Below, piece after piece: positions 15,476 through 35,248 of a DNA stretch of 64,000 bases. The notes below the pieces were generated by a model. That model was not told where the DNA came from. It worked only from the letters and a program-made list of their open reading frames with translations, and made no database searches. Numbering within the stretch: position 1 is the stretch's first letter; each line of letters opens with the position of its first letter. Both the position numbers and the translations under genes were made by a program. Origin of the DNA: Spirochaetota bacterium (lineage in GTDB: Bacteria > Spirochaetota > UBA4802 > UBA5550); the NCBI GenBank assembly GCA_963663865.1, contig OY760686.1, positions 2,208,001 through 2,272,000 on the forward strand. The letters run 5' to 3'.

Positions 15476-17659
15476 TCAGACGTCTCTGAGGGATTTACGA
15501 AGCGTAAGCGAATTCAGCACCACCGAAACTGAACTGAAGGCCATGGCTGCCCCCGCTATGTAGGGATTTAAAAATCCAAGGGCGGCGAAAGGTATTGCAG
15601 CTGCGTTATAGAAGAAAGCCCAGAACAGGTTCTGTCTGATTTTATTCATTATTTTACGCGACACTATGAGCGAAGAGTAGACTCCTTTCAAGCCGCCATG
15701 CACGAGCGCTATGTCGCCTGAATCTACAGCTATATCTGAACCGCCAGCCATCGAAATCCCCGTATCAGCAGCCGCCAGAGCAGGAGCATCGTTTATTCCG
15801 TCTCCCGCCATTATCACCCTCAGTCCCCGTTGCCTCAGCTCCGATATCTTTGCTGCTTTTTGCCCGGGAAGCAGGCCGGCAAAGACATTGATGCTTTTTA
15901 TTCCAGCTTCGGAAGCGGTCTTCAGAGCAGACGCATGGTTGTCGCCGGTTAGCATGAATACCTCAAGCCCCAGGCCTTGAAGCTTATTAATTGCTTCAGC
16001 CGAGTCACTCCTAAGAGTATCACCCGCCGTAATAATTCCAGCTGCGTTTCCATCTATTGCTACGTACACAGCTGTTAGACCTGATCTGTGAACTCTATCT
16101 TCTACAGGTGAAAAAGCTTCTGTGTAAACGCCGGCCCCGTCCAGAAAGACCGGTGTCCCTGCAATAACCTGTTTGCCGTTGACCATAGCTGAAACTCCCT
16201 GCCCCGGAAAGACCCTGAAGCTTCCGGCATCTGAAATTGCTGCACCTGATTGAGCAGCATAGCCGACTATCGTCTTTGCCAGCGGATGCTCCGACATTCG
16301 CTCTACCGATGCCGCGGCTGACAGAATTTCTTCAGCGGTGTAGCCATCCAGAGGAATAACATCTTCCACCTCCGGAACACCCCCTGTTATTGTGCCGGTC
16401 TTGTCGAGCACGACGGCATTAATACGCCTTGAATTCTCAATGGGAACGCTGTTCTTGATGATGATTCCCCTGAGCGCCGCGGCCCCCGCACCTGAGACAA
16501 TGGCCGCGGGAGTCGCCAGCCCGAGCGCGCATGGACATGCTATTACCAGCACCGAAACGGCATTTAGAAGGGCGGCTTCAAGACCTATCCCGTAAGCCAT
16601 CCATCCCGCGAATACAGCCGCAGCTATCAGTATTACCGTTGGCGCGAAAACAGCTGACACCCTGTCAACCGTCTTCTGAATCCCGGTCCGTGAAGCCCCG
16701 GCGTCTCGCACTGCCCTTATTATTCCTGAGAGTACAGTAGATTCGCCGGCATTTTTAACGCGGCATACAAGATATCCTGCCGAGCATACCGTTCCCGCGC
16801 TAACTGCTTTACCGGGACCCTTTGCCTGTGGAAAAGGCTCTCCGGTCATCATACTTTCGCTTACATCGGCGTTCCCTTCAATCACAACAGCATCGGCTGG
16901 AATAGTCTCTCCGGATTTTACGGCTATAACTTGTCCCTCTTTAAGTTCCTCCGCTCTGACCTTACGTTCAGCACCGTTTTCAAGGAGTGTTGCCCAGGCC
17001 GGCCTCAGCTTTATCAGCTTCTTCAGGGCTGCAGTGGTCTTCTCTTTTGCGCGGCCCTCAAGATGCTTGCCCAGCAGGACAAGCGTTATCACCATGGCTG
17101 AAGCCTCATAGTAAAGATGGCCTTCCGCGCCTGTAAATCCGGTGTACAGGCTGTAAAAAAAAGCCGCCCCGGTTCCAAGAACTACAAGAATGTCCATGCC
17201 AGGACTTCTGTTAATCAGACTCGACAAAGCCCTTCTGTAAAAGCCCGCGCCTGCCACAAACTGAACCGGGGCGGCAAGAACAAGCTGGAATATATGGCTG
17301 TTAAAAAGATGTGAATGTACACCCGCGAACATAAGAAGCATGTTAATTACCAGCGGAAGGGTCAGAAACGCGGCTAAAATAAGCGGAAGAGACCTTTTTA
17401 ATCCGGACCGCTTATCCTCGTCATCCTCTGAGCCATCGTCCTCCGAGGGAGTAAACCCGCTGCGCTCTATTGCTTCGTTTATTGAATCAGTGCTGGCCAA
17501 CTGATCGTTAAATATAACCTTCGCTGTTCCTGCAGCGAGGTTGACAGAAGCGGAGACAACCCCCTTGCTGCCCGTCAGCACCTTTTGAAGCCTGGCTGAA
17601 CACGCAGCACAGCTCATGCCGTCGACTTTTACATTGTATTCTCTAATATTCATAAGCAT
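15476..17659 (-). CDS. copA: Copper-translocating P1B-type ATPase
   Basis: GMSCAAC HMA domain, CPCALGLA, DKTGT, SEHPLA, GDGINDAP, FFYN and AMAFSSVSV Cu(I) signatures; downstream of csoR. Confidence 0.93.
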   Translation of the reverse strand: MLMNIREYNVKVDGMSCAACSARLQKVLTGSKGVVSASVNLAAGTAKVIFNDQLASTDSINEAIERSGFTPSEDDGSEDDEDKRSGLKRSLPLILAAFLTLPLVINMLLMFAGVHSHLFNSHIFQLVLAAPVQFVAGAGFYRRALSSLINRSPGMDILVVLGTGAAFFYSLYTGFTGAEGHLYYEASAMVITLVLLGKHLEGRAKEKTTAALKKLIKLRPAWATLLENGAERKVRAEELKEGQVIAVKSGETIPADAVVIEGNADVSESMMTGEPFPQAKGPGKAVSAGTVCSAGYLVCRVKNAGESTVLSGIIRAVRDAGASRTGIQKTVDRVSAVFAPTVILIAAAVFAGWMAYGIGLEAALLNAVSVLVIACPCALGLATPAAIVSGAGAAALRGIIIKNSVPIENSRRINAVVLDKTGTITGGVPEVEDVIPLDGYTAEEILSAAASVERMSEHPLAKTIVGYAAQSGAAISDAGSFRVFPGQGVSAMVNGKQVIAGTPVFLDGAGVYTEAFSPVEDRVHRSGLTAVYVAIDGNAAGIITAGDTLRSDSAEAINKLQGLGLEVFMLTGDNHASALKTASEAGIKSINVFAGLLPGQKAAKISELRQRGLRVIMAGDGINDAPALAAADTGISMAGGSDIAVDSGDIALVHGGLKGVYSSLIVSRKIMNKIRQNLFWAFFYNAAAIPFAALGFLNPYIAGAAMAFSSVSVVLNSLTLRKSLRDV

Positions 17660-17665
17660 TCTCCT

Positions 17666-17968
17666 CTATCTCATGAGACGTCTTACCGTCTTCATCACTT
17701 CATCCACGACCTCGACCCTTCCCTCAAGAATCTGATCGACTATGCAGCTCTTCATGTGTGCGGTTAAGAGTTCCTGTTTAACTCCCTTAAGCGCCGATTC
17801 AACAGCCGCGATCTGGTTAAGCACTCCATCACAGTAAACCTCGGATTCTATCATTCTCGTTATGCCCCTGATCTGCCCTTCAACGCGCCTGAGTCTTCCC
17901 GATAGCCTTTTTTTTACATCGTCAGAATGAGCCGCTTTCCTGCCGCAGCCGCTTTCATCGCATTTCAT
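17666..17968 (-). CDS. csoR: Copper-sensing repressor CsoR
   Basis: RLRRVEGQIRGI...YCDGVLNQIAAV...AHMKSC (C-H-C ligands). Start at ATG 17968 after GGAGG. Confidence 0.93.
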   Translation of the reverse strand: MKCDESGCGRKAAHSDDVKKRLSGRLRRVEGQIRGITRMIESEVYCDGVLNQIAAVESALKGVKQELLTAHMKSCIVDQILEGRVEVVDEVMKTVRRLMR

Positions 17969-17979
17969 ACATCCTCCAC

Positions 17980-17996
17980 ATACCCCATGGGGGTAT
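17980..17996. promoter_or_regulatory. CsoR operator
   Basis: ATACCCCATGGGGGTAT, matching the TACCC-N-GGGTA CsoR box, directly upstream of the csoR RBS. Confidence 0.88.
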
Positions 17997-18010
17997 ATTA
18001 AAAATACTAA

Positions 18011-18039
18011 AAAAAAGCGTGCAGGCAAGCACGCTTTTT
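18011..18039 (-). terminator. Intrinsic (potentially bidirectional) terminator after pepN
   Basis: AAAAAGCGTGC-AGGCAA-GCACGCTTTTT. Confidence 0.75.
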
Positions 18040-20966: not shown

Positions 20967-21494
20967 ATGAAATCATCAAACTTAGAGAATATTCAAAAGG
21001 ACCTCAAAAAGATCCGTTCCGCGGCCGCAATTATTCTCCGCGAACTTGAGGTTGACGATATCAGGCATAAGCTTGAGACTCTGAAAAAACTTGAAGGACT
21101 GCCTGAGCTGCCGGTTGACAGCGTAACGAGAGAGCTAAAAGAATACGCCGAAACAAGGGACGTTTACAAGCGCCTTTACACGTCTTGCGCGAGGACCATT
21201 ATGACAATCATATCTTCGAATTTTTTAACCGGGACAGGAGATCCGGCAAACTCCTTTAACTACTCTGAACCCCTCGCGCCCCTGCAGGCTGCACAGATGA
21301 TTGCGTTCCTTCCAAAGGCATATATGGGAGGCCCGATAAAGGCAGCAGCGGCAAGCCAGTTTCCGAATGTCCGCGATAAGGCCGCGGAATTCTACGACAG
21401 CCTGCCCCATGAGATGAAGTACTCCGGCTCTTTCCCTCCCGGATTCAGGAATTACATAAGAACCCTCAAGTCAACAGCAGCGGCTCACAACTGA
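20967..21494 (+). CDS. Hypothetical protein
   Basis: 175-aa ORF with AGGAGG RBS; no recognisable motif. Confidence 0.75.
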   Translation: MKSSNLENIQKDLKKIRSAAAIILRELEVDDIRHKLETLKKLEGLPELPVDSVTRELKEYAETRDVYKRLYTSCARTIMTIISSNFLTGTGDPANSFNYSEPLAPLQAAQMIAFLPKAYMGGPIKAAAASQFPNVRDKAAEFYDSLPHEMKYSGSFPPGFRNYIRTLKSTAAAHN

Positions 21495-21700
21495 GCCGCT
21501 TTTCTTTTGGCAACTTGTAAAAAAAACATTTATAAAGTAAATTTTGCTTGCCATTTTATATTTAAACTTTAATAATTTACAGTTATCTTTATCAGCAGTC
21601 CGCTGATAAACGCAGCAACTTTTCGGAGGTATATAAAGCATCAGATATTCATTTAAGGATTAGGCGTTGTTGTTATTAAAAAAAGCAAAGGAGCAAATCC

Positions 21701-21913
21701 ATGACCGAACAGCAATTACTTACCGATCTTGCAGTTGCCGAAAGAAACATGAAGCGCAAATCGAGCATTTACAGCATAGATTTTTTTAAGAATGTTACTG
21801 ATGCTTTCAAAATGACCCGGACGAACTCCTTTGCAGACCTGATAAAAACAGATCCGCAAAAGGCACTCGCCCTCAGAGATCTTGCAGTGAAGGAAAAGCT
21901 TCTAAGGCCATAG
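21701..21913 (+). CDS. Small hypothetical protein
   Basis: 70-aa ORF, AAGGAG RBS, converges on the A2M gene. Confidence 0.7.
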   Translation: MTEQQLLTDLAVAERNMKRKSSIYSIDFFKNVTDAFKMTRTNSFADLIKTDPQKALALRDLAVKEKLLRP

Positions 21914-21914
21914 G

Positions 21915-24900
21915 TCAGTCCTTTTCCCTTACTTCAATCAGGGCAGGCTTCGACCAGCCCTGAACTGACGGTTCGTACATACACTCCATCCGGGCAGGCC
22001 GCGCCATGTAGATGCCCGGCAGCTCGGCGCGTATGGTGTAGCCGATTTCATAGACCTCGCCTTTTTTAAGACTGTGTAGAAAGTATATTACCCTGTTATC
22101 CCACCGCTCAGCCCTGAATTCTCCAGCACCAAATGCGTCAGTGTCCGCAACCTCAAATCCCGACGGCAGAAAATCCTCCAGCATCAGATATTCAAAATCA
22201 TCCTGCGCGGTGAATCTAAGCTTAACCAAAATCTCTTCACCCACATCCGCAGCCCCTTCTGAAGGCGAAGGAACCAGATACTCTCGGCTTGAGATATCTT
22301 TCACTCTTGTGAGAGACTCAAAGGTTCTGACGAGACTAATTCCGTTTGAAAGCGAGTCAAGCGCGCCCTTCTCACCTCCGGAAAGCGACTGCATCAGTCC
22401 TTTTTTGAAGTAGAGGGTGCCGCTTACAACCGCTTCATAGGCTATTCCCTCAGCGCCCTTTCCTTGAGCGACAACGGTTAATTTCTGCGGATTAATCTTA
22501 TCGGTCAAATCAACCACTGCCGTCAGTGCTGAGGCAGCTGATCTAACAGCGGGATCATAGCTTATCGAAGCTGCATCCCTTCCATTTAACTTAAACTGTG
22601 CTATAAACGGCCTTCCAGCCGATACACCGGCTTTTTCCAGATACTCGCACGCTGAATATATAACCAGCGACGTCTCGCGGGTCGATGACCAGCGCCCCTC
22701 TCTGCTTTCGGCCATAAGGGTTGACATTGCCCCCGCCGGAAGCTCTCTCTCGCCGGCCGAGACGAGAGCGCGCATTGCCCTTGCCGTTATTTCAGTCTTT
22801 CCGCCTGGCCATCCGTACCTCTGGCCACCAACAGCTTCCCAGTATATTCCTGAGCCGTCCTTTTTGACAAGGGATATGAGCTCCTTCACAAGCCGCCTGT
22901 AATCGTCTTTTAGTTCAGCCGCATCCCCGTTCTTATTATTAATTCCTTTTCCTCCTACCCTGGACGACAGGGCTGAAAGAAGCATTGAAGCGCCATACGG
23001 ATTCTTAGAGACGGATTTGCTCAGCGAGGCGTAAGCCTTATCGTCCCACTTGCCGTAAAGCGAAACAGCATAAAGAAGATATGCCCTCTCATCAATCCGC
23101 TTAGGGTCAAGGTCTGAGAGCATTCTGCCGGCAGCCTGAAGGCCGTCCTTAAGTGTGACGATGTTCACCGAGTGGCCCTCCCGCGAAGCCGCGTACAGGG
23201 ATTCAAGCACAAACCCTGTTAAAAAGGCGTTTCCTCTGTCACCTGACCACCAGCCCCAGCTGCCGTCGCTGTTCTGAATTGTTGTGATTCTGCGAAGCCC
23301 TGCGGCGGTCTTTTCTTTAACCTTTGCGACGTCAGCTTCATCCGCTAAATGCAGAAGATTGGTTTTTTTCAAAAATGAATGCAGCCTCATAACGGGCATG
23401 AAGCTGTTTACTGTTTGCTCAACACAGCCATAAGGGTACCTTATGAGATAGCCGGATGACTCTACAAGTTTTATCAGAGGCGTAGGGCTTACAGATATCT
23501 TCAAGGTTTCCGGAACAAAGTCAAAACCGGAAATATCCCTGACAGACTCCAGCTTCAGCTCAGAGGCTCCGATGACTCCTGTTCCCTGTATCTTATACAG
23601 TGAACCACGGCGCTCAACTGGTATAGTGATTTTAACAGCATCTGAAACACCGCTGCCGGCATCGGCTGTGTATTGCATGTCCACTGCCTTCGGGCCTGAC
23701 GGCACTTCAAATCTGAAGAGCTCCCGCGCCGCTCCGAACGGCGGAAGGCTCATTCGAACCTCTTTTGCAGGCTTGAGTTTTGATCCGGCAAGTCTCATAT
23801 CAGTCCCGATCTGAGTCATTCCAGCAGAAGTGTTGCTGTTCACCAGGCCGAGGCATGACGCGCTGTCGCCCTCAACCATGAAGCGCGGACTTCCGATTCT
23901 GGCGATAAGGTCCTGTGTACACTTAAACTTTCTCTTCGTCTCACCCATCCTTCCCGATTTATCATGCCCTCTTGCTGTTATGCGCCAGGTAGTCAGATTG
24001 TCGGGCAGCTTAAAGCTCACGGCGGCCCGGCCGTCTTTGCCTGTACGCACGCGGGGATTCCAGTATGCTGTATCCTCAAACTTTTCGCGGACCTTGATTT
24101 TACCGTCCTTGCCCGCTCCGGCGAGCACATTTACCGGATATGAGTACGTGGTAAGTACCCAGTTTGATATTTTTGAATAGAAGAAGTCTCTCATGTGCGG
24201 AGTAAAATCACTGCGAATACTGTAAATGGCCTCATCAACAACTCCTATCGATATGTCAGAGGAAACCGGCATGCCCTCCCCGCTCAAGGTCCTGACATTA
24301 ATTTTTACTGTTTCACCGGGCAGGTAGCTCTCTCTGTCTGGTTCCGCTGTAACTTCAAGCTCTGTTCCCTCAACCGGGATGGACACCTCTGATGATGCCG
24401 TAAAGAGGGCACGCTTCTGCTGAAGTATAGCCGAAACATAGAAGTTCGGCGCCCAATCCTGCCTCGCGTGAATTACAACGGGCATTACATTGCCCTTCAT
24501 GCGAACAACTTTCGACCAGTAAATATCCTTACCCTCAGCTGTAAGAAGGACGTGGGCGTCAGGGTAGCGTGTCTTCAGAAGGCAGGTGATGTCTCCGTCG
24601 GTTTTAAGCTCATTAGTACTCAGCTCCATTTCAAGGTTTTTAAATCGGCTGTCGACCCTGCCTCCGTGAGGGTGATAAACCCACACCACCCTTGAAGCTG
24701 TAATGCGGTTTCCCCTTTTATCAAACCCGCTGACTATAATATCGTATTCACCATAACGGCTGAAGTCCTTCGTTATATTAATATCCGCCGAACCTTTTGA
24801 ATCAGTCGTGATTTTACCCGAAAATACCGGACGGCTGTCATGAACGTAGACCCTCTGATACGGCTTCCAGATATAGGGGTACATCTCAACCTTGAGATCG

Positions 24901-27248
24901 GCCCTGACCGGCTGGCCGGCCTGGTTCAGTGTTTTAAACGCAATTTTTTTGCCGGCCCCGGCCTCAAAGAAGTTTGCCTCAGGATCAACCTTTATATAGT
25001 ACTCGCCTCTTCCGACACGCACAGAGGCAGAGGATGTAATACTGACATTTGATGAATCTGTCACAGTCACTTCAACCCTCACCTCCCTGTCATAGGGATA
25101 GTTGCCTGCCTCAAGCTTCAATGAAGCCATGCCGTTTTCGTTGAGATACTTCTGGCCGTCAAGCCTCAGGCGGCTGTAGCCGGAGGAGCCGGAATCGTCC
25201 TCTTCCCACCAGTATGTGGTCTCGCTGTCCTTCAGGCGGGTTTCGTAAAACCGGTAGCGCATAACAGAGTCTTTTACAGGAGCTCCGAAGAAGTATTTGG
25301 CGTCGACCCTGAACTCGATATCATCCCCATTAATAAAGAACTCCTTAACCGGAGAGGCTTCGACCTTGAACTCGGGTTTCCGGTACTGTTCGGCATAGAA
25401 CCTTCCCGACGCGTAGAGGTTTTTTTCAGCAGGCCCCGCCTGAATAACATAGGCGCCAAGTCCCCAGTCAGCCTCAAGCCTGACCGTGGAAGACCATGCG
25501 CCCCACTCGTCAAGAGTCCCCTGCCCCTCTAAAACCGTACGGCCATTGCCGGTATTTACTATTTTGAAATAAACCGGGGCCGGTTTCATGGGCACAAAAA
25601 GACCTGCAGCCTGTTTGCCTACAACCTTGAAATGTACGGTGTCGCCGGAGCGGTAAACCGGCCTTTCAGTGTATATCATGTACTTGTTTTTTTCCTTCTC
25701 GAATGCCGAAGCCGATCCGGTATTGCATATCGCGTAGCTGCCGTCAGGCGACACTGCGAGCACCGAAAGCCTCTCAGCGCTGCCCAGCGTGAAGGCACAG
25801 GTTCCGCTGCTGTCAGTCACTGATCTTCTTAAAACCCTGTACGGCAGATCTTCAATATTCTCAGGATTGGTTGTTTTTTTTCGTTTGCTTCCCGGATCGA
25901 AAACAAGCACTGAAGCCTTTTCAAGGGGTTTGCTTTCAACAAGGTCGGTCGCGTAAACGAACACTCCGCCGGGGGTCCGCTTCGTTACGATGCCAATTGA
26001 TGTCACAGTAAAAAAGCGCCGCTGGTAGAGCCTGCCTGCGCCTCTGATATCAATACAGTATCCGCCGGTTGGCAGGGCCTCCTTGATTGAAAGAGTGCTG
26101 TACATCCAATCATAGGGTTTAAATCTTTCGATCGGCTCCTCCCATGAGGCAACCTTTTTAAAGCCGCGTGCATCATCTCCGGCACCATAGCTGAAATTGT
26201 CTCCTCCCGCAATTGACGCCGGCGGAACGCTGTAGACCGTTACGTTAACAGTCTCAAGCCTGATAGTCCTCAGGCTGAACTCAAGCTTGTTTCCCGGGGC
26301 AAAGGTGTACCTGTAAGAATGGAGGTGAGCCTCAGGATTTCGTGGCTCTGCTGTAAAATTGCTGTCTTTTATCTCAACACCTTCAGTTAAATTAATATCA
26401 ATCTTTTTATCGCATGTAAATCCCTGGTGGGTCATATACAGCTCATATCTGCCGGGCTTAAGGTCTTCAATAATGTATGTTCCGTCGTCAAATGTCTGAG
26501 CCGAATGATATTCCCGGCCTCTGGCCGTCACCCTGATTCCGGGGGCGGGAATATTAAGGCCTCCTATCATGACCTTGCCGCTGATGGCCGAAGGTCTGTA
26601 CAGCTTCATTGGCAGTTTGGTCTTTTCTCCCGCTTTCACTGAGTCAAGAGAAGCCGTCTCGGTTATATGCCCTGCCTTTGCAAACGAGAGGCTGTACGCG
26701 CCGGATGGCAGCCTTCCGAACCTGTAACTGCCGTCATCATTTGTTATGTAGAATTCAGGCTTTGATGAGCTGTAGGCCCCATAGCCCCTGTTGAGCCTGA
26801 CCTCGGCGCCCTTTACCGGTTTTCCAGAGGAATCAGTCACGGCACCTTCAATTACGGCTTCCGGTGCAAGGCTGATCTTGATATGCCCCGGTGTTATTAT
26901 GCCTTCGGAATTGTAGTCTACATAGCTTTCAGCCTGAACAGCCATGACATATTTAATGCTCTTTATAAATCCGGTTATCTCGAAGACTCCATCGCTTCCG
27001 GAAAGGGCTTTGTAGTAGCCCACGCCCATGTTGGCGTTCTTTATCTCTACGGCCGCTCCTGAGATGCCCCTGCCGGTGACTGAATCAACGACCCTGCCTG
27101 TTATAGTTTCCGAACTGGACAGCTCACTGCCGCCGCCGTAAACGCGTGTGCCGTCCTTTCTGACTTTAATATCCGTTCCGGCACAGGAAACTGCCGCAAA
27201 TAAAAGCAGCATAAATCCAGCGGTTTTCATCCTGTCGGCTGTTCTCAT
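21915..27248 (-). CDS. Alpha-2-macroglobulin family lipoprotein with N-terminal carboxypeptidase-regulatory/Cna-B-like repeats
   Basis: Lipobox FAAVSC, ITGRVVDS/IEGAVTDSSGKPV repeats, YTERPVYRSGD (MG2), YRKPEF, LPDNLTTWR, thioester motif YPYGCVEQ, QNSDGSWGWW, D.LPSGFE, MYEP. Confidence 0.95.
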   Translation of the reverse strand: MRTADRMKTAGFMLLLFAAVSCAGTDIKVRKDGTRVYGGGSELSSSETITGRVVDSVTGRGISGAAVEIKNANMGVGYYKALSGSDGVFEITGFIKSIKYVMAVQAESYVDYNSEGIITPGHIKISLAPEAVIEGAVTDSSGKPVKGAEVRLNRGYGAYSSSKPEFYITNDDGSYRFGRLPSGAYSLSFAKAGHITETASLDSVKAGEKTKLPMKLYRPSAISGKVMIGGLNIPAPGIRVTARGREYHSAQTFDDGTYIIEDLKPGRYELYMTHQGFTCDKKIDINLTEGVEIKDSNFTAEPRNPEAHLHSYRYTFAPGNKLEFSLRTIRLETVNVTVYSVPPASIAGGDNFSYGAGDDARGFKKVASWEEPIERFKPYDWMYSTLSIKEALPTGGYCIDIRGAGRLYQRRFFTVTSIGIVTKRTPGGVFVYATDLVESKPLEKASVLVFDPGSKRKKTTNPENIEDLPYRVLRRSVTDSSGTCAFTLGSAERLSVLAVSPDGSYAICNTGSASAFEKEKNKYMIYTERPVYRSGDTVHFKVVGKQAAGLFVPMKPAPVYFKIVNTGNGRTVLEGQGTLDEWGAWSSTVRLEADWGLGAYVIQAGPAEKNLYASGRFYAEQYRKPEFKVEASPVKEFFINGDDIEFRVDAKYFFGAPVKDSVMRYRFYETRLKDSETTYWWEEDDSGSSGYSRLRLDGQKYLNENGMASLKLEAGNYPYDREVRVEVTVTDSSNVSITSSASVRVGRGEYYIKVDPEANFFEAGAGKKIAFKTLNQAGQPVRADLKVEMYPYIWKPYQRVYVHDSRPVFSGKITTDSKGSADINITKDFSRYGEYDIIVSGFDKRGNRITASRVVWVYHPHGGRVDSRFKNLEMELSTNELKTDGDITCLLKTRYPDAHVLLTAEGKDIYWSKVVRMKGNVMPVVIHARQDWAPNFYVSAILQQKRALFTASSEVSIPVEGTELEVTAEPDRESYLPGETVKINVRTLSGEGMPVSSDISIGVVDEAIYSIRSDFTPHMRDFFYSKISNWVLTTYSYPVNVLAGAGKDGKIKVREKFEDTAYWNPRVRTGKDGRAAVSFKLPDNLTTWRITARGHDKSGRMGETKRKFKCTQDLIARIGSPRFMVEGDSASCLGLVNSNTSAGMTQIGTDMRLAGSKLKPAKEVRMSLPPFGAARELFRFEVPSGPKAVDMQYTADAGSGVSDAVKITIPVERRGSLYKIQGTGVIGASELKLESVRDISGFDFVPETLKISVSPTPLIKLVESSGYLIRYPYGCVEQTVNSFMPVMRLHSFLKKTNLLHLADEADVAKVKEKTAAGLRRITTIQNSDGSWGWWSGDRGNAFLTGFVLESLYAASREGHSVNIVTLKDGLQAAGRMLSDLDPKRIDERAYLLYAVSLYGKWDDKAYASLSKSVSKNPYGASMLLSALSSRVGGKGINNKNGDAAELKDDYRRLVKELISLVKKDGSGIYWEAVGGQRYGWPGGKTEITARAMRALVSAGERELPAGAMSTLMAESREGRWSSTRETSLVIYSACEYLEKAGVSAGRPFIAQFKLNGRDAASISYDPAVRSAASALTAVVDLTDKINPQKLTVVAQGKGAEGIAYEAVVSGTLYFKKGLMQSLSGGEKGALDSLSNGISLVRTFESLTRVKDISSREYLVPSPSEGAADVGEEILVKLRFTAQDDFEYLMLEDFLPSGFEVADTDAFGAGEFRAERWDNRVIYFLHSLKKGEVYEIGYTIRAELPGIYMARPARMECMYEPSVQGWSKPALIEVREKD

Positions 27249-27249
27249 T

Positions 27250-27855
27250 TCACAACTCCTCTTTTCCCTTTTTGATGATCAGAGTAAACGCTCTGAAGGC
27301 ATATATTGAACTATCCCCTGTCCGGGGTGAAATCTTCTCGAGATACTCATGCGTCTTTATCTCTGCGGGAACGTACACAGTTGAAGTTCCGGAAGTCCCT
27401 TGAAAAACAACTCCAAAAGTTTTAATATTTACCGAGGATAAATCTCTCACCGGAACCGGCCTCTCCGCGACCGTAATGATGATCTCTGAGTCCGACAGCT
27501 CTTCAAGCTTCAGGGGCTCATACCTGGGGTCACACCTCAATGCGCCGTGAAGGTATTCGCGAATGACTTCATCCGTGCTTCCCGATGGATAAAATGAGCC
27601 GTAGCATCCCCTCACCCGGCCCCGATACCTGATAGTGACGAAAAGCCCCGACTCAGCCGCCGGGAGCTCCGGTCCGGAGTACCCCGGTACATCACCACGA
27701 ATTATTCCTTCCGCGGCTTCGTAAAGCCAGCATCGAAAACCGATGAACGCGGTGCTGTCTTCGAGGGGCTTCCACTCCGAACGGACATCCTCAGCTGCCG
27801 CCGAAGTGGTAAGCATAACCGCTGCGAGGAGCATTATCCACCCCTTGATTTTCAT
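27250..27855 (-). CDS. AMMECR1-domain protein with a predicted signal peptide
   Basis: GLFVTI...VRGCYGS...ALRCDPRYEPL...EL (AMMECR1 RGC and DPR motifs); N-terminus MKIKGWIMLLAAVMLTTSAAA. Confidence 0.85.
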   Translation of the reverse strand: MKIKGWIMLLAAVMLTTSAAAEDVRSEWKPLEDSTAFIGFRCWLYEAAEGIIRGDVPGYSGPELPAAESGLFVTIRYRGRVRGCYGSFYPSGSTDEVIREYLHGALRCDPRYEPLKLEELSDSEIIITVAERPVPVRDLSSVNIKTFGVVFQGTSGTSTVYVPAEIKTHEYLEKISPRTGDSSIYAFRAFTLIIKKGKEEL

Positions 27856-28562
27856 TGATACCTCACTGGCGGGTAGAAGTCACGGTATAAAAGCGAACGG
27901 TCAATCAGCTTTTCTCCCCTGTAGCGGTTGCGGAAAACCAGAACTGTGATGCCGTTGCGAATATTCTCATCATCGCCGAAGGGTATCTGCATGTGCTCTT
28001 CTTCAGTTTCAACACGGTATGTAAACTTAAACGGGCCGGGGGACACAATCATTGCTGTAAGTGTATTGCCGGTAAGATTCATGTGAATAGTTATATCGTG
28101 ATCAGATATGTTTTTAATTTTGAGATCCTTCTTGCCGTAAAGGATCGTGGCGTCAAGGCCAAGGGGCACATAGCTGACCGGCTGATAGTGGCGGTGTCTT
28201 TCGACGATCGACAGCCCGGAGTTTATTAACGCGTTAAACAGCGTTGACGAGACCTGGCATACACCGCCTCCGGGCTCCATACGAAGCGTATCGGCGTAAA
28301 GTACAGCCCCGTCCACAAAGCCGTTTTCCGCTGAAGCCTCGCCCGCCACCGCGTTGAACGAGAATACTGAGCCGGAACGTACGACTGTTCCGTCGACCTT
28401 TGAAGCAGCCAGCTGAATGTTGCGCTTTACTCCCGGGGCCTGTCCATTAACCGACGTTGCGAAGGAGGCTATGATGACCATGCCGTCCTCTTGACCGGGA
28501 ACCGGATATGAATACAGGGCGGCCGAGGAGAACACTACGATAATAAAAATAATACGTGTCAT
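27852..28562 (-). CDS. VanW family protein (short, exported)
   Basis: NIQLAASKVDG...FSFN, GGGVCQVSSTLFNA, ERHRH, YVPLGLDAT, DLKIKN; hydrophobic N-terminus from ATG 28562. Confidence 0.92.
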   Translation of the reverse strand: MTRIIFIIVVFSSAALYSYPVPGQEDGMVIIASFATSVNGQAPGVKRNIQLAASKVDGTVVRSGSVFSFNAVAGEASAENGFVDGAVLYADTLRMEPGGGVCQVSSTLFNALINSGLSIVERHRHYQPVSYVPLGLDATILYGKKDLKIKNISDHDITIHMNLTGNTLTAMIVSPGPFKFTYRVETEEEHMQIPFGDDENIRNGITVLVFRNRYRGEKLIDRSLLYRDFYPPVRYQ

Positions 28563-28631
28563 GTGCTTGATTTTCTCACGAAGAAGCGCACTGTCAACTC
28601 TATTTTGGCTGGTTCTGATTGAGGAAGAGCC

Positions 28632-28667
28632 GCCCAAACGCCCACCGGGTAGTGAAGCGCATAAGCT
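28632..28667 (-). repeat. Degenerate attC remnant after vapC
   Basis: GCCCAAACG-N10-AGTGAAGCGCATAAGCT aligns, with the same spacing, to GCCCGAACG-N10-AGTGAAGCGCATATGCT inside the intact site (35302-35337). Confidence 0.65.
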
Positions 28668-28689
28668 ATAACAGCGGCTGTTGCGTTTT

Positions 28690-29091
28690 TTATTCTTTTA
28701 CCCAGTTCTCAAGCTTCAGACCTTCTACTCTTTCAAATTCTTTTATATTGTTCGTAACAAGAATTAATTTTTTTGACTTTGCCTGTCCCGCAATCAATAG
28801 ATCCTTTGGTCCAATTAGCTTGCCTTTTGTTTCTAAATCTGTTTTAATTATTCCGAATTCGACAGCATCAGTATCATCAAACGGCAAAATAATAAAGATT
28901 GATAAAAACTCAATCAAAGCTATTTTGTTCTTTTCTGGAAATTTACTATTCGCAACTCCATATTCCAGTTCAGCAATTGTTATTGATGAAACATAAATGT
29001 CTTTCTTTGATTTTGTTTTTAATGTCTTTAATACATCAACCGGCTTCTTCTTAATGATATTAATACAGATATTCGTATCCAGCAAATACAT
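28690..29091 (-). CDS. vapC: VapC PIN-domain toxin
   Basis: YLLDTNICI, ITIAELEYG, IGPKDLLIAGQA, LVTNNIKEFERV. Confidence 0.95.
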   Translation of the reverse strand: MYLLDTNICINIIKKKPVDVLKTLKTKSKKDIYVSSITIAELEYGVANSKFPEKNKIALIEFLSIFIILPFDDTDAVEFGIIKTDLETKGKLIGPKDLLIAGQAKSKKLILVTNNIKEFERVEGLKLENWVKE

Positions 29092-29303
29092 CAGAAATTT
29101 TCTCTTTTTTGATTTTCACCTTAATCACGGCTTTCTTTCATGAAATCATCAGTAAAATTATTCAGCCCATGAAGAAATACTTACCAGGATTTATTATGAG
29201 GAAGTAGAATCACGGCATCTCCAACTTTTTGGATAAGCACATCGTTGCCGGAAAATTGAAATTCTTTAGGTAAGCGTACTGCCTGCCCTCGGTTTTTAAT
29301 CAT
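29091..29303 (-). pseudogene. vapB: VapB/VagC (AbrB-type) antitoxin pseudogene
   Basis: MIKNRGQAVRLPKEFQFSGNDVLIQKVGDAVILLPHNKSW*VFLHGLNNFTDDFMKESRD*GENQKRENF; in-frame TAA at 29181-83 and 29121-23; TGATG overlap with vapC. Confidence 0.88.
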
Positions 29304-29636
29304 TTAATTCCTTATTAATCTTCTTAAAATTATATCTTCGAAATTTCTTCTAGAGTCAATCATTGAAAGAATATATACTTTATGTTCTTCGATTCTATAG
29401 ATTATTCGCCACGGAGTTATAATCAACTCCCGATAGTTGCTAATATTATGAAAATCAAGTTCAGGAATAATCCTTCCTCGTTCAGGATAATTTTCTAATT
29501 TAACCGTTTGCTTTTTAATTTTTTCAAATATTTTTTCAGCTATATTCAGGCTGTCGAATGAAATATATTCAATTATTTCAATAAGATCATCTTGTGCCAA
29601 CCTGGTCCAGAATACAGTATATTTTTTTGATGTCAT
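29304..29636 (-). CDS. RelE/ParE family toxin
   Basis: VFWTRLAQDDLIEIIEYI...YPERGRIIPEL...YRELI..PWRIIYRI...DSRR. Confidence 0.92.
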   Translation of the reverse strand: MTSKKYTVFWTRLAQDDLIEIIEYISFDSLNIAEKIFEKIKKQTVKLENYPERGRIIPELDFHNISNYRELIITPWRIIYRIEEHKVYILSMIDSRRNFEDIILRRLIRN

Positions 29637-29640
29637 AAAC

Positions 29641-29919
29641 TTATCTTTTTTTTAGAATTTTATCTTCAACAGAAGAAAAAAATGTGCTCTGCTCAATAAA
29701 TTTTCCATTTTTAACATCTTTTTCTCCCATCGAAATTAATTTAAAAATTCTTATCGCATTTTGCATCGAATCATAGCTCTCGGTATCCATTAATACAGCC
29801 TTTGCTTCACCATTTTGAGTAATTATTATTGGTCGATGGGTTTCGTTTACTTGATCCAGCATGTTTGCAGCATTTGCTTTTACAAAAGAAATTGGGCGTA
29901 TATCTTGTTTAGTATTCAT
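29641..29919 (-). CDS. Phd/YefM family antitoxin
   Basis: DIRPISFVKANAA...RPIIITQNGEAKAVLMD; directly upstream of the RelE/ParE toxin. Confidence 0.93.
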   Translation of the reverse strand: MNTKQDIRPISFVKANAANMLDQVNETHRPIIITQNGEAKAVLMDTESYDSMQNAIRIFKLISMGEKDVKNGKFIEQSTFFSSVEDKILKKR

Positions 29920-30072
29920 TATTTTATCCTTTAATGCATTTCATTTGATCTAAATATAGTACCAAATTAAGTTTACAGGTCAAGAATAATTTTCTAATAC
30001 GGTTGGAGCAACTTTCTTACTACATTTCGTTTAAATCATTGCGAATATCTCATATTTACCTCCTAATGGAGG

Positions 30073-30140
30073 CGACAACTTTCCTGATTATGAGGATATG
30101 CCACGTTTTCACCGTAGCGCAGCAAAGGTGAAAACATGGC
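30073..30140 (-). repeat. Partial attC-like site (long hairpin plus R'-like GTTGTCG)
   Basis: Minus strand GCCATGTTTTCACC...GGTGAAAACGTGGC hairpin, then CATAATCAGGAAA-GTTGTCG; compare CATAAGCAAAAC-GTTGTCT at the end of the intact site. Confidence 0.5.
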
Positions 30141-30144
30141 TAAG

Positions 30145-31506
30145 TCATTTCTTTCCCTCATATTTTGACCAAAAGCTGTATTTGCGGCCATGGGCCTGCA
30201 TAATTTGATCTTTAAAGGCAATATTATTACTATGATTTTCCCAATCATCAACATATATGGACATTTTGTCCAACTTCTTTAGATACCGGACTCCATGGGG
30301 ATAGGCTTTGGTATAACCACGCTCCAGAATAGATACCAGCAAACTCCGGTAAATAAGGCTGGACGCAAGATGTCGCTTTTCTGATTCCATAATTTCTGCC
30401 AATGGAATAAGGCTTCCATAAAAATTACCGTCGAATTGCTCAGCTCGCTTTATGAGATATTCTTCGGCTTCATTGATCTTTCCTGTTTCGATCAGAAACC
30501 CTGCATCCGATAAACAAAGGCTTTCGTTTTTTAAAATTTGTGCCACCTCAACAGCAATGACTTCATCCCTTTTATCATGTCCAATCACATCCAGAAGAGC
30601 CTGCAGGGTGTAGGTTGAGTGGTAAGATTTGAATTTATGAAAAAGAAGTTCTGTCAGCTTTTCTGTGTCGCCCTGTTTTTCATAAATTTCCTGAAGAAGC
30701 TTGTCCCTTTCATATGCCTGAAATGTTTCTCCCTTCGGGATTTTTTTGAGCCATAAGTATGCTGTTTCAACATCTTCGTTTTCCAGATATACCTGGGCTA
30801 TATCAATGAAAGCCGCAGTGGAAAGCTTTCCCCATGAAGCAATTCGAGTTTTTTCAAACAGTCTGGCATCACCAATCTGTCTGGCCAGAGATTCAATAAG
30901 CATCAGATGATGTCTCTTATTATAATCCGCGCTCTCTTTGTCAGCCCGTAACTGCAGTACTGTAATCATTCTCCTGACAGCATCTTCGGGCAGACATTCT
31001 CCGGCGCAGGCAATCAAAGTATCCCGGATACCGTAATCATCCTTTTGATTTACTTTAAGGATAATTTCGGCGACTTTTTCCTTATCAGCACAACGAGAAG
31101 CATAGTCAACAAACAGCTCCCTGGCATCATAGCGGAAGACATCACCAATATTTCCATTGGAATCATCGCACATTTCAAAGATAACATTGTCAGCCTCGTA
31201 AAAAGAAGCTACCATTTCCATGCCGGTTAAGGGGTCATCCATACCTGCCTTCAAATCCTTCAGAAGCATTTCCAGTTCCCGGGCAAATCCATCTGCACCA
31301 TGCCAATCGATAAAGCGTCTGGAACGCTTAAGGCCGGAGAGTTTCTTTCAGAACCGCTGAACATTTTCCTTCGGCGGTGCAATCAGTCGTTCTATCAAAT
31401 CATCAGCTTCATCAGAACTTAACGAAAGGTCCAGAAGCGCGTCCGCAAGAACTTCCGGACCTTGATCAATCAATTTCTCCCTGCGGTCATTCCCTGAGTT
31501 TTCCAT
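30145..31506 (-). pseudogene. DUF6880-like helical protein interrupted by an in-frame TGA
   Basis: Frame runs from ATG 31506 (MENSGNDRREKLIDQGPEVLADALL...) through TGA 31348-50 into the 374-aa ORF; CDDSNGNIGDVF and Y.HGVRYLKKL...HGRKYSFW motifs. Confidence 0.7.
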
Positions 31507-31514
31507 AAACAGCA

Positions 31515-32045
31515 TTATTCTTCTTTTACATAATCATAAAATTCATAAACAAGATTCCCGATTTCATCATGAAATCCCCAGCCTATTCCTTCCGTTTCAT
31601 CTATAAAACCGAAACACCGGTCTTTGTATTTCTCCAGCATATCGTTTTTACTTATATGTACAAGGAACCGTTCCAATGCTTTTTCAATATTTTCGTAAAA
31701 ACGTTCACCAATATCGCCGTATTCATTGGTGAAATCTATCCCGCATTTGACATGCGTAAATAGAAGTTCCGCCAAATAACCGGGATCGTTTGAGATTTTT
31801 ATAAACTTTGAAAGAACGTCTCTGATATTGGCATATCTTAGTTTTCCAAATCCTTTTTCAGGAAAAAACTCATCAATGATCTGCTTTCTGTATTTCCGGA
31901 AAACTTCTTCAGGATTTGAAAAACTATTTTTTTCATCAAGAATCTCTTTTGCAAGAGGCACTTTTCTGTATAAATCAATGATTATTTCCATCAATTCATT
32001 TTTTTTCATGGAGCCTAATTCTTTCTTTAATTCTCTGATTCCCAT
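31515..32045 (-). CDS. DUF6155-like hypothetical protein
   Basis: ELKKEL..M.K.EL...IIDLY, EFFP.KG.GKLR, FTNEYGDIGERFY, GIGWGFHD. Confidence 0.7.
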   Translation of the reverse strand: MGIRELKKELGSMKKNELMEIIIDLYRKVPLAKEILDEKNSFSNPEEVFRKYRKQIIDEFFPEKGFGKLRYANIRDVLSKFIKISNDPGYLAELLFTHVKCGIDFTNEYGDIGERFYENIEKALERFLVHISKNDMLEKYKDRCFGFIDETEGIGWGFHDEIGNLVYEFYDYVKEE

Positions 32046-32285
32046 TATTAGTTTCCTGTCCCGTTTTTTCCGTCTTTCTTTTCAAGCAATTTCTTTTAGA
32101 TTTCCAGTTCCTTTAAGTCCTCTTCATCGGCCTTTTTTGCTTCGTTATTTTTCCTCTTTCTATCGAATTAATCGTATCAGACTTCATCAATATCTGGGAC
32201 CACTTCCACTTGAAGTGAACCTACCCCGAAAAAGTGGACACGAAGTTAAGCGAATTTAACGATAATAAACTTAACGGAGAAACCC

Positions 32286-32588
32286 ATGACTAACAGAAGA
32301 ACGTATGATCGTCAATTCAAAATTGATGCAGTAAAATTACTGAAAGAGAGCGGCAAAACAGCTTCTGCGGTCGCCGATAATCTGGGGATTAAATCTGATC
32401 TCTTGTCACGCTGGAAAAAGGAATTTGCCAATGAAACCAAAAAAGTTTTTCCAGGGAAAGGAAATCCGCGAGATGAAGAAATAACACGTTTGAAAAAAGA
32501 GAACGCAGATCTTCGTATGGAGCGTGATATATTAAAAAAAGCAATGGCCATCTTTTCACAACCCGAAAGGAGAAATTCGAATTCATGA
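32286..32588 (+). CDS. IS3 OrfA (HTH)
   Basis: RRTYDRQFKIDAV...VADNLGI...LSRWKK...LRMERDILKKA; A7G slippery run at 32534-32541. Confidence 0.92.
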   Translation: MTNRRTYDRQFKIDAVKLLKESGKTASAVADNLGIKSDLLSRWKKEFANETKKVFPGKGNPRDEEITRLKKENADLRMERDILKKAMAIFSQPERRNSNS

Positions 32589-33412
32589 AAAACAATGAAT
32601 CGATTTATCCGGTGAAGAAGATGGCTGAAACATTTAGAATACCCAGAAGTCAATATTACAAATGGCTGAATTCAAAACCTTGCTCTCGTGAGCTTCGAGA
32701 TCAGGAATTACTTGTTATAATCAAAAAGAGTCATGAAGAAAGCAGAGAAACATACGGCAGCCCCAGGGTCTTTAAAGATATTAAGAAGAAGGGAATCAAA
32801 ACCTCAAAGAAACGAGTAGCTCGACTCATGCAAAGGAACGATCTTAAAGGTGCACAAAAACGCAAATTTAAGGTTACTACCAATTCAGATCATGAATATC
32901 CAGTGGCACCAAACCTTCTCAATAGGCAGTTTGATGTGCAGCAACCCAACACCTATTGGGTAAGCGATATCACCTATATATGGACGATGGAAGGATGGCT
33001 GTATCTATCTGTTATAATTGACCTGTTCTCTCGAATGATTGTCGGATGGGCAATGGAGTCTCATATGCGGGCAGAGTTGGTAATTGATTCATTAAATATG
33101 GCTGTCACTCATCGCAATCCTGATGATGGATTAATATTCCATTCTGATCGGGGAACTCAATATGCCTGTGATGATTTTCGAACAGCACTTAAAGGATACG
33201 AGATGATTCAAAGCATGAGCCGGAAAGGTAACTGCTGGGACAATGCATGTGCTGAAAGCTTTTTTGCAACATTAAAGACTGAAGAAGTTTATCGTAGAAA
33301 ATATAAAACCAGAGAGGAAGCAAGGTCTTACATATTTGAATATATAGCTGTTTTTTATAACAGAAAAAGACAGCATTATTTTCTTGACTGTTTAAATCCT
33401 GTGGAATATTAA
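32585..33412 (+). CDS. IS3 OrfB (DDE integrase core)
   Basis: YGSPR, WVSDITY, HSDRGTQY, SMSRKGNCWDNACAESFF; lies in the -1 frame relative to OrfA. Confidence 0.93.
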   Translation: MKNNESIYPVKKMAETFRIPRSQYYKWLNSKPCSRELRDQELLVIIKKSHEESRETYGSPRVFKDIKKKGIKTSKKRVARLMQRNDLKGAQKRKFKVTTNSDHEYPVAPNLLNRQFDVQQPNTYWVSDITYIWTMEGWLYLSVIIDLFSRMIVGWAMESHMRAELVIDSLNMAVTHRNPDDGLIFHSDRGTQYACDDFRTALKGYEMIQSMSRKGNCWDNACAESFFATLKTEEVYRRKYKTREEARSYIFEYIAVFYNRKRQHYFLDCLNPVEY

Positions 33413-33475
33413 ATAAATATGCTCAAACTTAAAAATGTTGTTTAACTATCTGTCCTATAAATCGGGGGAGCTTCA

Positions 33476-33526
33476 ATCCCAGGCCGAAAGCACAGCATAT
33501 AAATCCTGTTAGGTGTAGTGTTTGAA
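33476..33526 (-). repeat. Truncated attC (R'' ACCTAAC) cut by IS3 and separated from its gene by IS256
   Basis: Minus strand TTCAAACACTACACCTAAC fits RYYYAAC and is an inverted match (15/19) to the cassette start GTTGTCTGTAATGTTTGAA at 35255-35237. Confidence 0.65.
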
Positions 33527-33527
33527 T

Positions 33528-34851
33528 GAGAGTGTAAAAAGATTTGTGTAAATAGCTATATTATTACTCAATAGATAAGGAGAAAAAATATGGCTATGGA
33601 CAAAGATGCAATAATTAATGAATTGCTGGAAGATGTGGATTTTAAAGCACTGACACCTGAACAGATTACCGGGAAAGACGGCCTTATTCAGCAATTAACC
33701 AAGAGGATTATCGAAACAGCGATGAATGCTGAGATGACAGAACATCTTGGCTACGACAAAAATGAAAGATCAGCAGGTAAAAGCACCAACGCTCGTAATG
33801 GTCGAAGTAGCAAGAAGGTGCTAACAAACAATGGAGAAGTCCTAATTGATATTCCCCGAGATCGTAATGCTGAATTCGAACCCAGAATAGTAAAGAAGCA
33901 TCAAAAACGATTTGAGCTCTTTGACGAGAAAATCATATCGATGTACGGGTTGGGGATGACAACCAGAGATATTCAGGGCCATCTTGAAGATATCTATGGA
34001 GTAGAGGTTTCGCCTGACCTGATCAGCACCGTTACCAATGAGATAATAAAAGATGTTCTGGAATGGCAATCCCGCCCACTTGATCCTGTGTACCCTATAG
34101 TGTATTTTGACGCTATCGTGGTCAAAGGCCGAACTGACGGCAAAGTATCAAATAAATCAGTGTATACGGCTATTGGGGTCAATATGCAGGGCAAAAAAGA
34201 AGTTCTAGGCTTATGGATTGGCGATTCAGAAGGAGCTAAATTTTGGCTTCAGGTTGTAAATGAACTTAAAAATCGAGGAATCGAAGATGTCTTCATCGCT
34301 TGCATGGATGGACTGAAAGGGTTTCCAGATGCGGTTAATGCCGTATTCCCAGAGACCAGGATTCAGCTGTGCATAGTTCATATGATACGCAATTCAATAA
34401 AATATGTATCATGGAAAGAACGAAAGGCGATATGTACCGATCTGAAAAGCATATATTCTGCCCCTTCCGAAAAGGCTGGTTTGGCTTCGCTTGATGAATT
34501 TTCTAAAAAGTGGGATGGTAAATATCCGATGATTTCAAAGTCATGGCGAGCCAATTGGGAAAACCTCAACGAATTTTTCGCTTATCCGGCAGATATTCGA
34601 AAAGCAATTTATACTACCAACGCAATTGAATCCTTGAATTCAAGCCTACGGAAAGTAACCCAGAAAAGAGCGGCATTTCCTACAGATGATTCAATCTTTA
34701 AGGTGCTGTATTTGGCATTGACGAAAGCCGAGAAAAAATGGACTATGCCAATCAGAGATTGGGGTGCTGCTATCAACCAGTTCGCAGTATATTTTGGAGA
34801 CAGAGTACCATTATAATCAAAGGCTATTTACACAAAAGATCTGATACTCTC
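33528..34851 (+). mobile_element. IS256-family insertion sequence with 8-bp target duplication
   Basis: IRs GAGAGTGTAAAAAGATTTGTGTAAATAGC / revcomp GAGAGTATCAGATCTTTTGTGTAAATAGC; DR GTTTGAAT at 33520-27 and 34852-59. Confidence 0.96.
33590..34816 (+). CDS. IS256 (Mutator) transposase
   Basis: PRDR..FEP, YFDA, CMDGLKG, QLCIVHMIRN, IYTTNAIESLN. Confidence 0.97.
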   Translation: MAMDKDAIINELLEDVDFKALTPEQITGKDGLIQQLTKRIIETAMNAEMTEHLGYDKNERSAGKSTNARNGRSSKKVLTNNGEVLIDIPRDRNAEFEPRIVKKHQKRFELFDEKIISMYGLGMTTRDIQGHLEDIYGVEVSPDLISTVTNEIIKDVLEWQSRPLDPVYPIVYFDAIVVKGRTDGKVSNKSVYTAIGVNMQGKKEVLGLWIGDSEGAKFWLQVVNELKNRGIEDVFIACMDGLKGFPDAVNAVFPETRIQLCIVHMIRNSIKYVSWKERKAICTDLKSIYSAPSEKAGLASLDEFSKKWDGKYPMISKSWRANWENLNEFFAYPADIRKAIYTTNAIESLNSSLRKVTQKRAAFPTDDSIFKVLYLALTKAEKKWTMPIRDWGAAINQFAVYFGDRVPL

Positions 34852-34873
34852 GTTTGAATAGCTGATGGCCATG

Positions 34874-35215
34874 TTAAACATCTTCATCTACTATTTCTGT
34901 TCCAACCAAATCTTCAATTACAGTATGACATTCAACATCAAACCATTCCATAAAAAGCTTATAGGTTCTGGGCTTAGGCCATGCGCTTTCGTCTTGGTAC
35001 CAATCGTTTAATTCATTTTCAAAAAAAATATCATAATTTTTCTTTAGCATTTGATCCAGATTTTCGGCAGAATTCTCATCAATCAAATATACCGTTCTTT
35101 CTTCGTTTGTCATTTCTTCTAAAGTAACAATACTATTATCAGATGAGTCGGTACTATTAATCCAATCGATCATTGGTTGTTTATATTTTAATAATAAAGC
35201 TGCACGATTAATCAT
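34874..35215 (-). CDS. Acidic hypothetical cassette protein
   Basis: GGGAGG RBS; INR.A...KQP..DW...VYL...FENEL.DW.QDE..WP..R....F.EWF pattern; bounded by attC-like sites. Confidence 0.8.
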   Translation of the reverse strand: MINRAALLLKYKQPMIDWINSTDSSDNSIVTLEEMTNEERTVYLIDENSAENLDQMLKKNYDIFFENELNDWYQDESAWPKPRTYKLFMEWFDVECHTVIEDLVGTEIVDEDV

Positions 35216-35248
35216 AAACCCTCCCTAAAATAATGCTTCAAACATTAC

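Follow-up and report, generated by a model that had tools for sequence, protein, structure and literature searches.

The view that bacterial alpha-2-macroglobulins (A2Ms) protect the periplasm in concert with a cell-wall enzyme rests mainly on the yfhM-pbpC gene pair. A stretch of 64,000 nucleotides from a Spirochaetota bacterium (contig OY760686.1, positions 2,208,001 to 2,272,000; hereafter the window, always at its full length) raises the question of what holds the place of the pbpC product, PBP1C, where an A2M gene has other partners. In the window, the A2M gene is the last of three; the two genes before it encode a VanW-domain protein and an exported AMMECR1-like protein. On balance, we consider it probable that this module represents a third genomic type of bacterial A2M trap-and-repair system, with VanW in place of PBP1C.

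Organization of the three-gene operon

The genes were placed using the list of open reading frames (ORFs) and the DNA letters. All three are on the minus strand and run in one direction, in the following order:

28562-27852, minus strand: VanW-domain protein, 236 amino acids (aa); Pfam PF04294, E-value 8.6e-45, 151.9 bits against a cut-off of 27
27855-27250, minus strand: exported AMMECR1-like protein, 201 aa; Pfam PF01871, E-value 2.6e-18, 66.5 bits against a cut-off of 25
27248-21915, minus strand: A2M, a putative lipoprotein, 1777 aa; Pfam CarboxypepD_reg three times (E-value 1.4e-30), MG2, MG3, A2M_BRD, A2M, TED_complement, and bMG10

The ATG of the AMMECR1-like gene and the TGA stop codon of the VanW gene overlap at 27855-27852 (ATGA), and the stop codon of the AMMECR1-like gene is separated from the ATG of the A2M gene by one base (27249). 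The tight coupling noticed in the preliminary description of this locus is therefore borne out in the DNA letters, and the arrangement is that of a translationally coupled operon. The same description had assigned export signals to all three proteins; judged by eye and with a Kyte-Doolittle window, each of them does have a hydrophobic N-terminus.

Gene order in relatives

Two sets of loci were collected from relatives. The first comprises the loci of the 19 best relatives, with 1.5 kb on either side; the second comprises 19 loci, one genome per species, found with a profile built from a 10-sequence alignment. Seven loci are common to both sets, leaving 31 distinct loci. The A2M gene is directly downstream of the AMMECR1-like gene in 17 of the 19 loci in the first set and downstream of it in all 19 loci of the second, two of which end at contig edges. 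VanW is directly upstream of the AMMECR1-like gene in 15 of 19 loci and adjacent in 12 of 19, respectively. The trio is thus syntenic in other genomes and other phyla, as the proposal of a distinct system had implied; of the two partners of the A2M gene, the AMMECR1-like gene shows the tighter linkage.

In the seven loci of the second set without an adjacent VanW gene, the upstream genes are unrelated. The four genomes of the first set in which VanW is not adjacent each encode one VanW elsewhere, in two cases on the same contig, 24 kb and 52 kb away. The full order of VanW, AMMECR1-like, and A2M is present in all three loci from outside the spirochaetes (L039, L040, and L041), which come from Syntrophales, Myxococcales, and Syntrophorhabdus metagenome-assembled genomes. 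In one locus (L024:8602-11984), genes for an AraC-type regulator and a CCG/4Fe-4S protein are located between the AMMECR1-like and A2M genes; this was the only split pair seen within a locus.

Distribution of the module and of PBP1C

The preliminary description had named pbpC as one of the usual partners of a bacterial A2M gene, the others being yfa or mag genes. With the BiPBP_C domain as the marker for PBP1C, no match was found in the complete 3.16-Mb genome to which the window belongs.

Of 41 genomes from the family and order to which the window belongs, 25 encode the exported AMMECR1-like protein, with E-values up to 3e-20; the next class of matches, which starts at 2e-12, consists of canonical or Memo-fused AMMECR1. 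VanW was found in all 25 of these genomes and in one other. BiPBP_C was found in 11 of the 41 genomes and in none of the 25 that carry the module. In ten of these 11, pbpC lies about 4 kb from an A2M match. A penicillin-binding protein (PBP) gene directly follows the A2M gene in four annotated loci; its product matched the Pfam domains Transgly, Transpeptidase, and BiPBP_C in L047, L048, and L050, and Transgly and Transpeptidase without a BiPBP_C match at the threshold used in L052. Five genomes, estimated to be 63-89% complete, have neither the module nor BiPBP_C.

An evenly drawn sample of 301 genomes from the phylum gave a similar picture. The profile for the AMMECR1-like protein separated its matches with a clear gap (at least 119 bits versus 77 for the next best), and 29 genomes encode the protein: 27 among the 46 genomes from the order of the window, and two among the 255 outside of it. 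VanW is present in 29 of these 29 genomes versus 36 of the 272 others; BiPBP_C is present in 1 of 29 versus 138 of 272. The alternation also occurs between close relatives. Within one genus (g8), eight genomes have the module without pbpC and two have pbpC without the module, and similar switches occur inside the families f3, f6, and f7. We read this pattern as about four independent replacements, a count that is not a formal statistic. The suggestion that VanW replaces the cell-wall partner of the A2M is supported by this complementary distribution and by the L,D-transpeptidase activity published for VanW domains (PMC11348318).

The VanW protein

A study from 2024 identified VanW domains as L,D-transpeptidases and found one cysteine to be essential, part of a proposed Cys/His/Asp triad; according to the same report the domains use a thioacyl intermediate, as YkuD enzymes do, and are scarce outside Gram-positive bacteria (PMC11348318). 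The ORF in the window extends over 27852-28637 if an upstream TTG is taken as the start. The ATG at 28562 gives the 236 aa protein beginning MTRIIFIIVVFSSAALYS, and the TTG-started form is unlikely. The N-terminus, MTRIIFIIVVFSSAALYSYP, is hydrophobic and may be a signal peptide or a membrane anchor; it is followed by the VanW domain and a short C-terminal beta region. The positions of the domain and of the candidate catalytic cysteine are:

28047-28424, minus strand: VanW domain
28257-28259, minus strand: Cys102

His125 and Asp137 are also present. All 21 VanW proteins compared from the module carry C102, H125, and D137, which fall in the motifs GGGxCQ, RHRH, and GLDAT. These residues are candidates chosen from the alignment of the module proteins.

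The Clostridioides difficile enzymes Ldt4 and Ldt5 likewise have a VanW domain, and their conserved Cys, His, and Asp (PMC11348318) may correspond to the candidate residues here. Unlike them, the VanW of the window is a minimal protein of 236 aa without PG_binding_4 (absent, like G5, in the Pfam search) or a disordered tail; it is encoded in a diderm spirochaete and is linked to an A2M. The best 120 longer VanW proteins listed are YoaR-like and have both PG_binding_4 and G5. One VanW protein of 527 aa (P0264) combines Big_2 with an incomplete BiPBP_C-like match under the Pfam cut-off (25.7 versus 26.8 bits); the match could hint that a VanW protein has borrowed the C-terminal domain of PBP1C, and it is too weak to use. 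VanW occurs as a single copy in the complete genome of the window, which also encodes one YkuD enzyme.

The alpha-2-macroglobulin

The domains and the thioester motif of the A2M are located as follows:

about 26349-27116, minus strand: three CarboxypepD_reg domains (Pfam)
24219-24635, minus strand: bait-region domain (Pfam A2M_BRD)
23850-24071, minus strand: A2M domain (Pfam)
23426-23415, minus strand: CVEQ thioester motif, residues 1275-1278, inside the TED_complement match
21969-22343, minus strand: bMG10 (Pfam)

The CVEQ motif had been read from the sequence before, and its place inside the TED_complement match agrees with that reading; every one of the 15 full-length module A2Ms recovered has the pattern GC[VILM]EQ. 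Extra N-terminal repeats had also been described, as Cna-B-like. The repeats are real, whereas the label has to change: they are CarboxypepD_reg (transthyretin-like) domains, and SdrD_B (1.5e-7) and SpaA (1.9e-5) match only weakly. The N-terminus, MRTADRMKTAGFMLLLFAAVSC, has a hydrophobic core followed by a lipobox-like AAVSC. A cysteine occupies this position in 11 of 14 aligned orthologues and is missing in three; the lipoprotein signal was judged by eye.

This is the only A2M in the genome, and its closest solved relatives are structures of Escherichia coli YfhM (5a42, 4ziq, and 4rtd; E-value 3.6e-14). Module A2Ms share 42-51% identity with it (27% for the one from Myxococcales), versus 21-22% for pbpC-type A2Ms from the same order. 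A quick maximum-likelihood tree unites the 14 module A2Ms in a single group with an SH-aLRT value of 99; the more thorough search for this tree was not completed, the tree contains flagged long branches, and its rooting is arbitrary. The Syntrophales A2M nests among the spirochaete module A2Ms in this tree, which suggests transfer of the module between phyla as a unit. CarboxypepD_reg domains were found in the A2M of the window and in five of five other module A2Ms scanned, versus none of five pbpC-type A2Ms. The best 120 database relatives all have this architecture and carry generic names (carboxypeptidase regulatory-like, YfaS family, or hypothetical protein). No VanW domain, and hence no A2M-VanW fusion, was found in the best 120 relatives of the C-terminal half, a listing limited in number and by protein length.

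Eight of 14 module A2Ms end in lysine and all 14 have a lysine within the last five residues; the A2M of the window ends in aspartate. The lysine-rich tail was considered as a tethering signal and dropped as non-discriminating, given that three of five pbpC-type A2Ms also end in lysine and four of five have one in the last five residues. By its CXEQ motif, MG domains, bait region, and bMG10 domain, the protein is an A2M of the thioester (type I) class without a PBP1C partner, and, going by these sequence comparisons, a distinct subtype.

The exported AMMECR1-like protein

AMMECR1 is normally a cytoplasmic protein and is universally conserved. In the window protein, the N-terminus MKIKGWIMLLAAVMLTTSAAAEDV contains a probable signal peptide (about residues 1-21), after which the AMMECR1 fold begins. 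The signal-peptide-like N-terminus proposed in the preliminary description holds across the family: 34 of 35 members have an N-terminal hydrophobic segment, and the exception is an artificial truncation produced by the ATG-start rule. The canonical AMMECR1 paralogue from the same genome has no such segment.

An AlphaFold2 model (pLDDT 91.2) matched only AMMECR1 structures in a Foldseek search (1zq7, 1vaj, and 1wsc; probability 1.00), and the homology begins at the first helix and continues to about residue 160. In the VRGCYG motif the R, G, C, and G are invariant, and Cys84 is encoded at 27604-27606. The residues invariant in 35 sequences are G70, F72, T74, R82, G83, C84, G86, A105, D109, R111, G148, P163, E165, and F187. 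The protein thus shares its fold and the RGC and DPR motifs with characterized structures of the AMMECR1 family (PH0010, 1vaj; MM0484, 1zq7; ST0229, 1wsc); unlike them it is exported, has a shorter C-terminus, and is encoded next to VanW and A2M genes. Against the NCBIfam model for AmmeMemoRadiSam protein A (TIGR04335) it scores 46.3 bits with a cut-off of 99, and so is not a member by score; unlike that protein, it is not encoded beside a Memo or radical SAM gene. The Memo gene is about 546 kb away, and the canonical AMMECR1 gene is also elsewhere in the genome. The exported family is small, with 73 representatives at an E-value of at most 1e-30 among 1.84 billion.

AMMECR1 was earlier predicted to move a group, via its conserved cysteine, onto RNA (cited in PMC4075521). 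For an exported copy, such an action on RNA is impossible. The preliminary description proposed an accessory or redox factor; on this point the analysis covered the retention of the invariant residues, the RGC cysteine among them, and the close linkage to the A2M gene. We favour a role as an accessory enzyme or adaptor that would act on or with the A2M, because the AMMECR1-like gene is almost always directly coupled to the A2M gene; this is the least supported step of our proposal.

A fourth gene in some relatives

Fifteen loci extend far enough downstream to show what follows the A2M gene; in ten of them, a fourth gene comes directly after it and often overlaps it. The product has 658-705 aa, is exported, and consists of a SpoIID/LytB domain fused to a class-B PBP transpeptidase-like domain; no similarity to PBP1C was detectable, and in seven of these proteins Pfam (E-value of at most 1e-3) gave no match to DUF2300. 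The fourth gene was found directly after A2M in L036, L037, and L038 and at these positions:

L023:14043-16118
L025:13844-15901
L028:13017-15002
L029:10725-12710
L031:14152-16197
L032:13656-15629
L035:13916-16018

In the genome of the window, the search for this gene gave weak matches only, one of them with internal stops, and the window therefore carries the minimal form of the module. The interrupted match (G000:C1:1781560-1782162, locus L053) aligns with the SpoIID-like part of the fourth gene at an E-value of 1e-9 and is interrupted by three internal stops; a remnant of the fourth gene and an unrelated SpoIID-like pseudogene are both possible.

A model for the module and its alternatives

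Taken together, these observations suggest the following model. As inferred from its family membership, the A2M would be a membrane-anchored lipoprotein that, with its bait region and CVEQ motif, covalently traps proteases reaching the periplasm. The minimal VanW, as an L,D-transpeptidase, would form or repair 3-3 cross-links in peptidoglycan and so hold the place of PBP1C; we assign it this role because of the complementary distribution of the module and pbpC and because of the activity published for VanW domains of other bacteria. The exported AMMECR1-like protein, which keeps the predicted catalytic cysteine of its family, would be an obligate partner acting on or with the A2M. In this model, the trapping of proteases, the formation of 3-3 cross-links, and any contact between the proteins are inferred. 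The anatomy of the operon, its conservation, the complementary distribution, and the retention of the motifs are direct observations.

Several points weigh against the replacement of PBP1C by VanW. The repair function attributed to PBP1C beside an A2M is itself a hypothesis in the literature and not a demonstrated mechanism. Related genomes are not independent of one another, and the counts given above overstate the statistics. Two loci from one genus (L016 and L022) have no A2M gene within 1.5 kb of the AMMECR1-like gene, and one genome (G307) has both the module and a BiPBP_C match; the exclusion is thus not absolute. VanW is also not specific to the module, being present in 36 of the 272 sampled phylum genomes that lack the exported AMMECR1-like protein. 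In family f15, 25 of 45 genomes encode VanW, often in two copies and in some cases as ORFs of 600-670 aa, while the exported AMMECR1-like protein is encoded in only one of the 45 and most have PBP1C. VanW therefore also has roles outside the module in this phylum. Finally, activity was confirmed for three of the seven VanW proteins tested from outside C. difficile, and all of these proteins come from other lineages, most of them with extra peptidoglycan-binding domains that are missing here (PMC11348318).

In an extension of the model, the AMMECR1-like protein would be a catalytically active cysteine enzyme of the periplasm, forming a thiol/thioester relay with the A2M thioester and the VanW thioacyl intermediate. 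One possibility is that such a relay passes on or resolves an acyl (peptidyl) group and so links the trap, or trapped proteases, to peptidoglycan repair. We consider the relay doubtful; if true, it would give the AMMECR1 family its first defined substrate context.

The three genes could also be explained without a cell-wall function. The AMMECR1-like and VanW proteins would then be maturation or recycling factors for this A2M subtype, which might form, protect, or reset its thioester or process its CarboxypepD_reg N-terminus. The subtype is indeed distinct from the pbpC type, and both accessory proteins have an invariant cysteine and are encoded beside a thioester protein. The tightest partner of the A2M gene is the AMMECR1-like gene, which precedes it in 17 of 19 loci of the first set and in all 19 of the second; the stops and starts overlap or nearly do so. 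The A2Ms of E. coli and Salmonella, however, form their thioester when expressed alone, without partners. Moreover, the substrate demonstrated for VanW is peptidoglycan, the fourth gene of the relatives again encodes a peptidoglycan enzyme, and the pattern complementary to pbpC better suits a role at the cell wall. We regard maturation or recycling as unlikely.

Alternatively, VanW could be a protein-to-peptidoglycan ligase that, with the AMMECR1-like protein as a helper, covalently tethers the A2M or trapped protease-A2M complexes to the sacculus. YkuD enzymes attach Lpp or outer-membrane proteins to meso-diaminopimelate. The thioacyl intermediate of VanW resembles theirs (PMC11348318), a YkuD-type enzyme for ordinary 3-3 cross-links is already encoded in the genome, and the lysine-rich tails of the module A2Ms would be in keeping with tethering. 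These tails, however, are shared with pbpC-type A2Ms, the A2M of the window itself ends in aspartate, and no VanW enzyme is known to attach proteins. A ligase therefore seems to us quite improbable.

We think it very improbable that these are merely co-regulated envelope genes that travel together, with the exclusion of pbpC as a lineage effect: although VanW is unlinked in seven of 19 and four of 19 loci of the second and first set, respectively, and 27 of the 29 module genomes belong to one order, the same gene order occurs in three other phylum-level lineages, the nesting of the Syntrophales A2M indicates that the module moved as one piece, translation of the genes is coupled, every one of the 29 genomes has VanW, unlinked cases included, and the switch between module and pbpC occurs inside one genus.

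Of the explanations considered, we thus prefer the replacement of PBP1C by VanW. If it is correct, the repeated replacement of PBP1C by a non-homologous transpeptidase would lend independent support, from comparison of genomes, to a real functional link between the trapping of proteases and the cross-linking of peptidoglycan. VanW-type L,D-transpeptidases, regarded as scarce in diderm bacteria, would acquire a defined role there. AMMECR1 would be placed in a simple periplasmic setting of three proteins that could be reconstituted in vitro, of interest to researchers of the cell envelope as well as of AMMECR1.

Surroundings of the operon

Directly upstream of the trio (28600-37000), the G+C content falls from 0.51 in the operon to 0.37-0.40. 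This region encodes a PIN toxin, a ParE/Phd pair, DUF6880 and DUF6155 proteins, and transposases of the IS3 and Mutator families, and it looks like a variable or mobile island that abuts the module. On the other side, a PepN-like M1 aminopeptidase gene is among the genes downstream of the trio, and an ORF of 175 aa without a Pfam match (20967-21494, plus strand) converges on the 3' end of the A2M gene. Because it is flanked by low-G+C, mobile-type genes upstream and by the convergent ORF and the aminopeptidase gene downstream, the trio is a self-contained unit. By eye we also read a short ORF of about 68 aa (about 21700-21910, plus strand) convergent on the same end.

One promoter-like site is located directly upstream of the VanW ATG:

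28570-28597, minus strand: TTGACA-16-GAAAAT with a TG extension, a weak match to the consensus

The region has 12 such sites versus 8.8 expected from shuffled sequences, and this site by itself is no evidence for a promoter. A terminator-like hairpin is present at 21479-21500 (plus strand), on the 3' side of the A2M gene; a scan of the region for terminators gave counts near the shuffled expectation and was uninformative. Farther away, 15476-18028 encodes a copper-type P1B ATPase (HMA and E1-E2 ATPase domains) and a CsoR-like metal-sensing repressor, an ordinary metal-efflux pair.

Comparison with known A2M systems

We found no description of an A2M with VanW or AMMECR1, or of an exported AMMECR1, in the literature searched, which left many subscription papers outside its reach. 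Two types of bacterial A2M are distinguished: type I, with a thioester and pbpC, and type II, without a thioester and in a mag or yfa operon (PMC5764988). The magABCDEF operon of Pseudomonas aeruginosa and yfaASQP of E. coli resemble the module in being multi-gene A2M operons with periplasmic or membrane accessory proteins (PMC5764988, PMC3735191). In contrast to these type II operons, described there as lacking the thioester, the A2M of the window keeps its CVEQ, and no Mag or Yfa partner families were seen among the annotated proteins of the window. The closer counterpart is E. coli yfhM-pbpC (ECAM and PBP1C; 5a42, 4ziq, and 4rtd), with which the module shares an A2M (here a probable lipoprotein) with a bait region, CXEQ, and bMG10, and, by the proposed activity of VanW, a peptidoglycan transpeptidase in the operon. 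This classic pair is present in relatives from the same order; compared to their A2Ms, the A2M of the window has, besides the low identity given above, N-terminal CarboxypepD_reg domains instead of Big_5/bMG2. The module differs from yfhM-pbpC in that its partners are VanW and an exported AMMECR1-like protein, in a genome that has no PBP1C.

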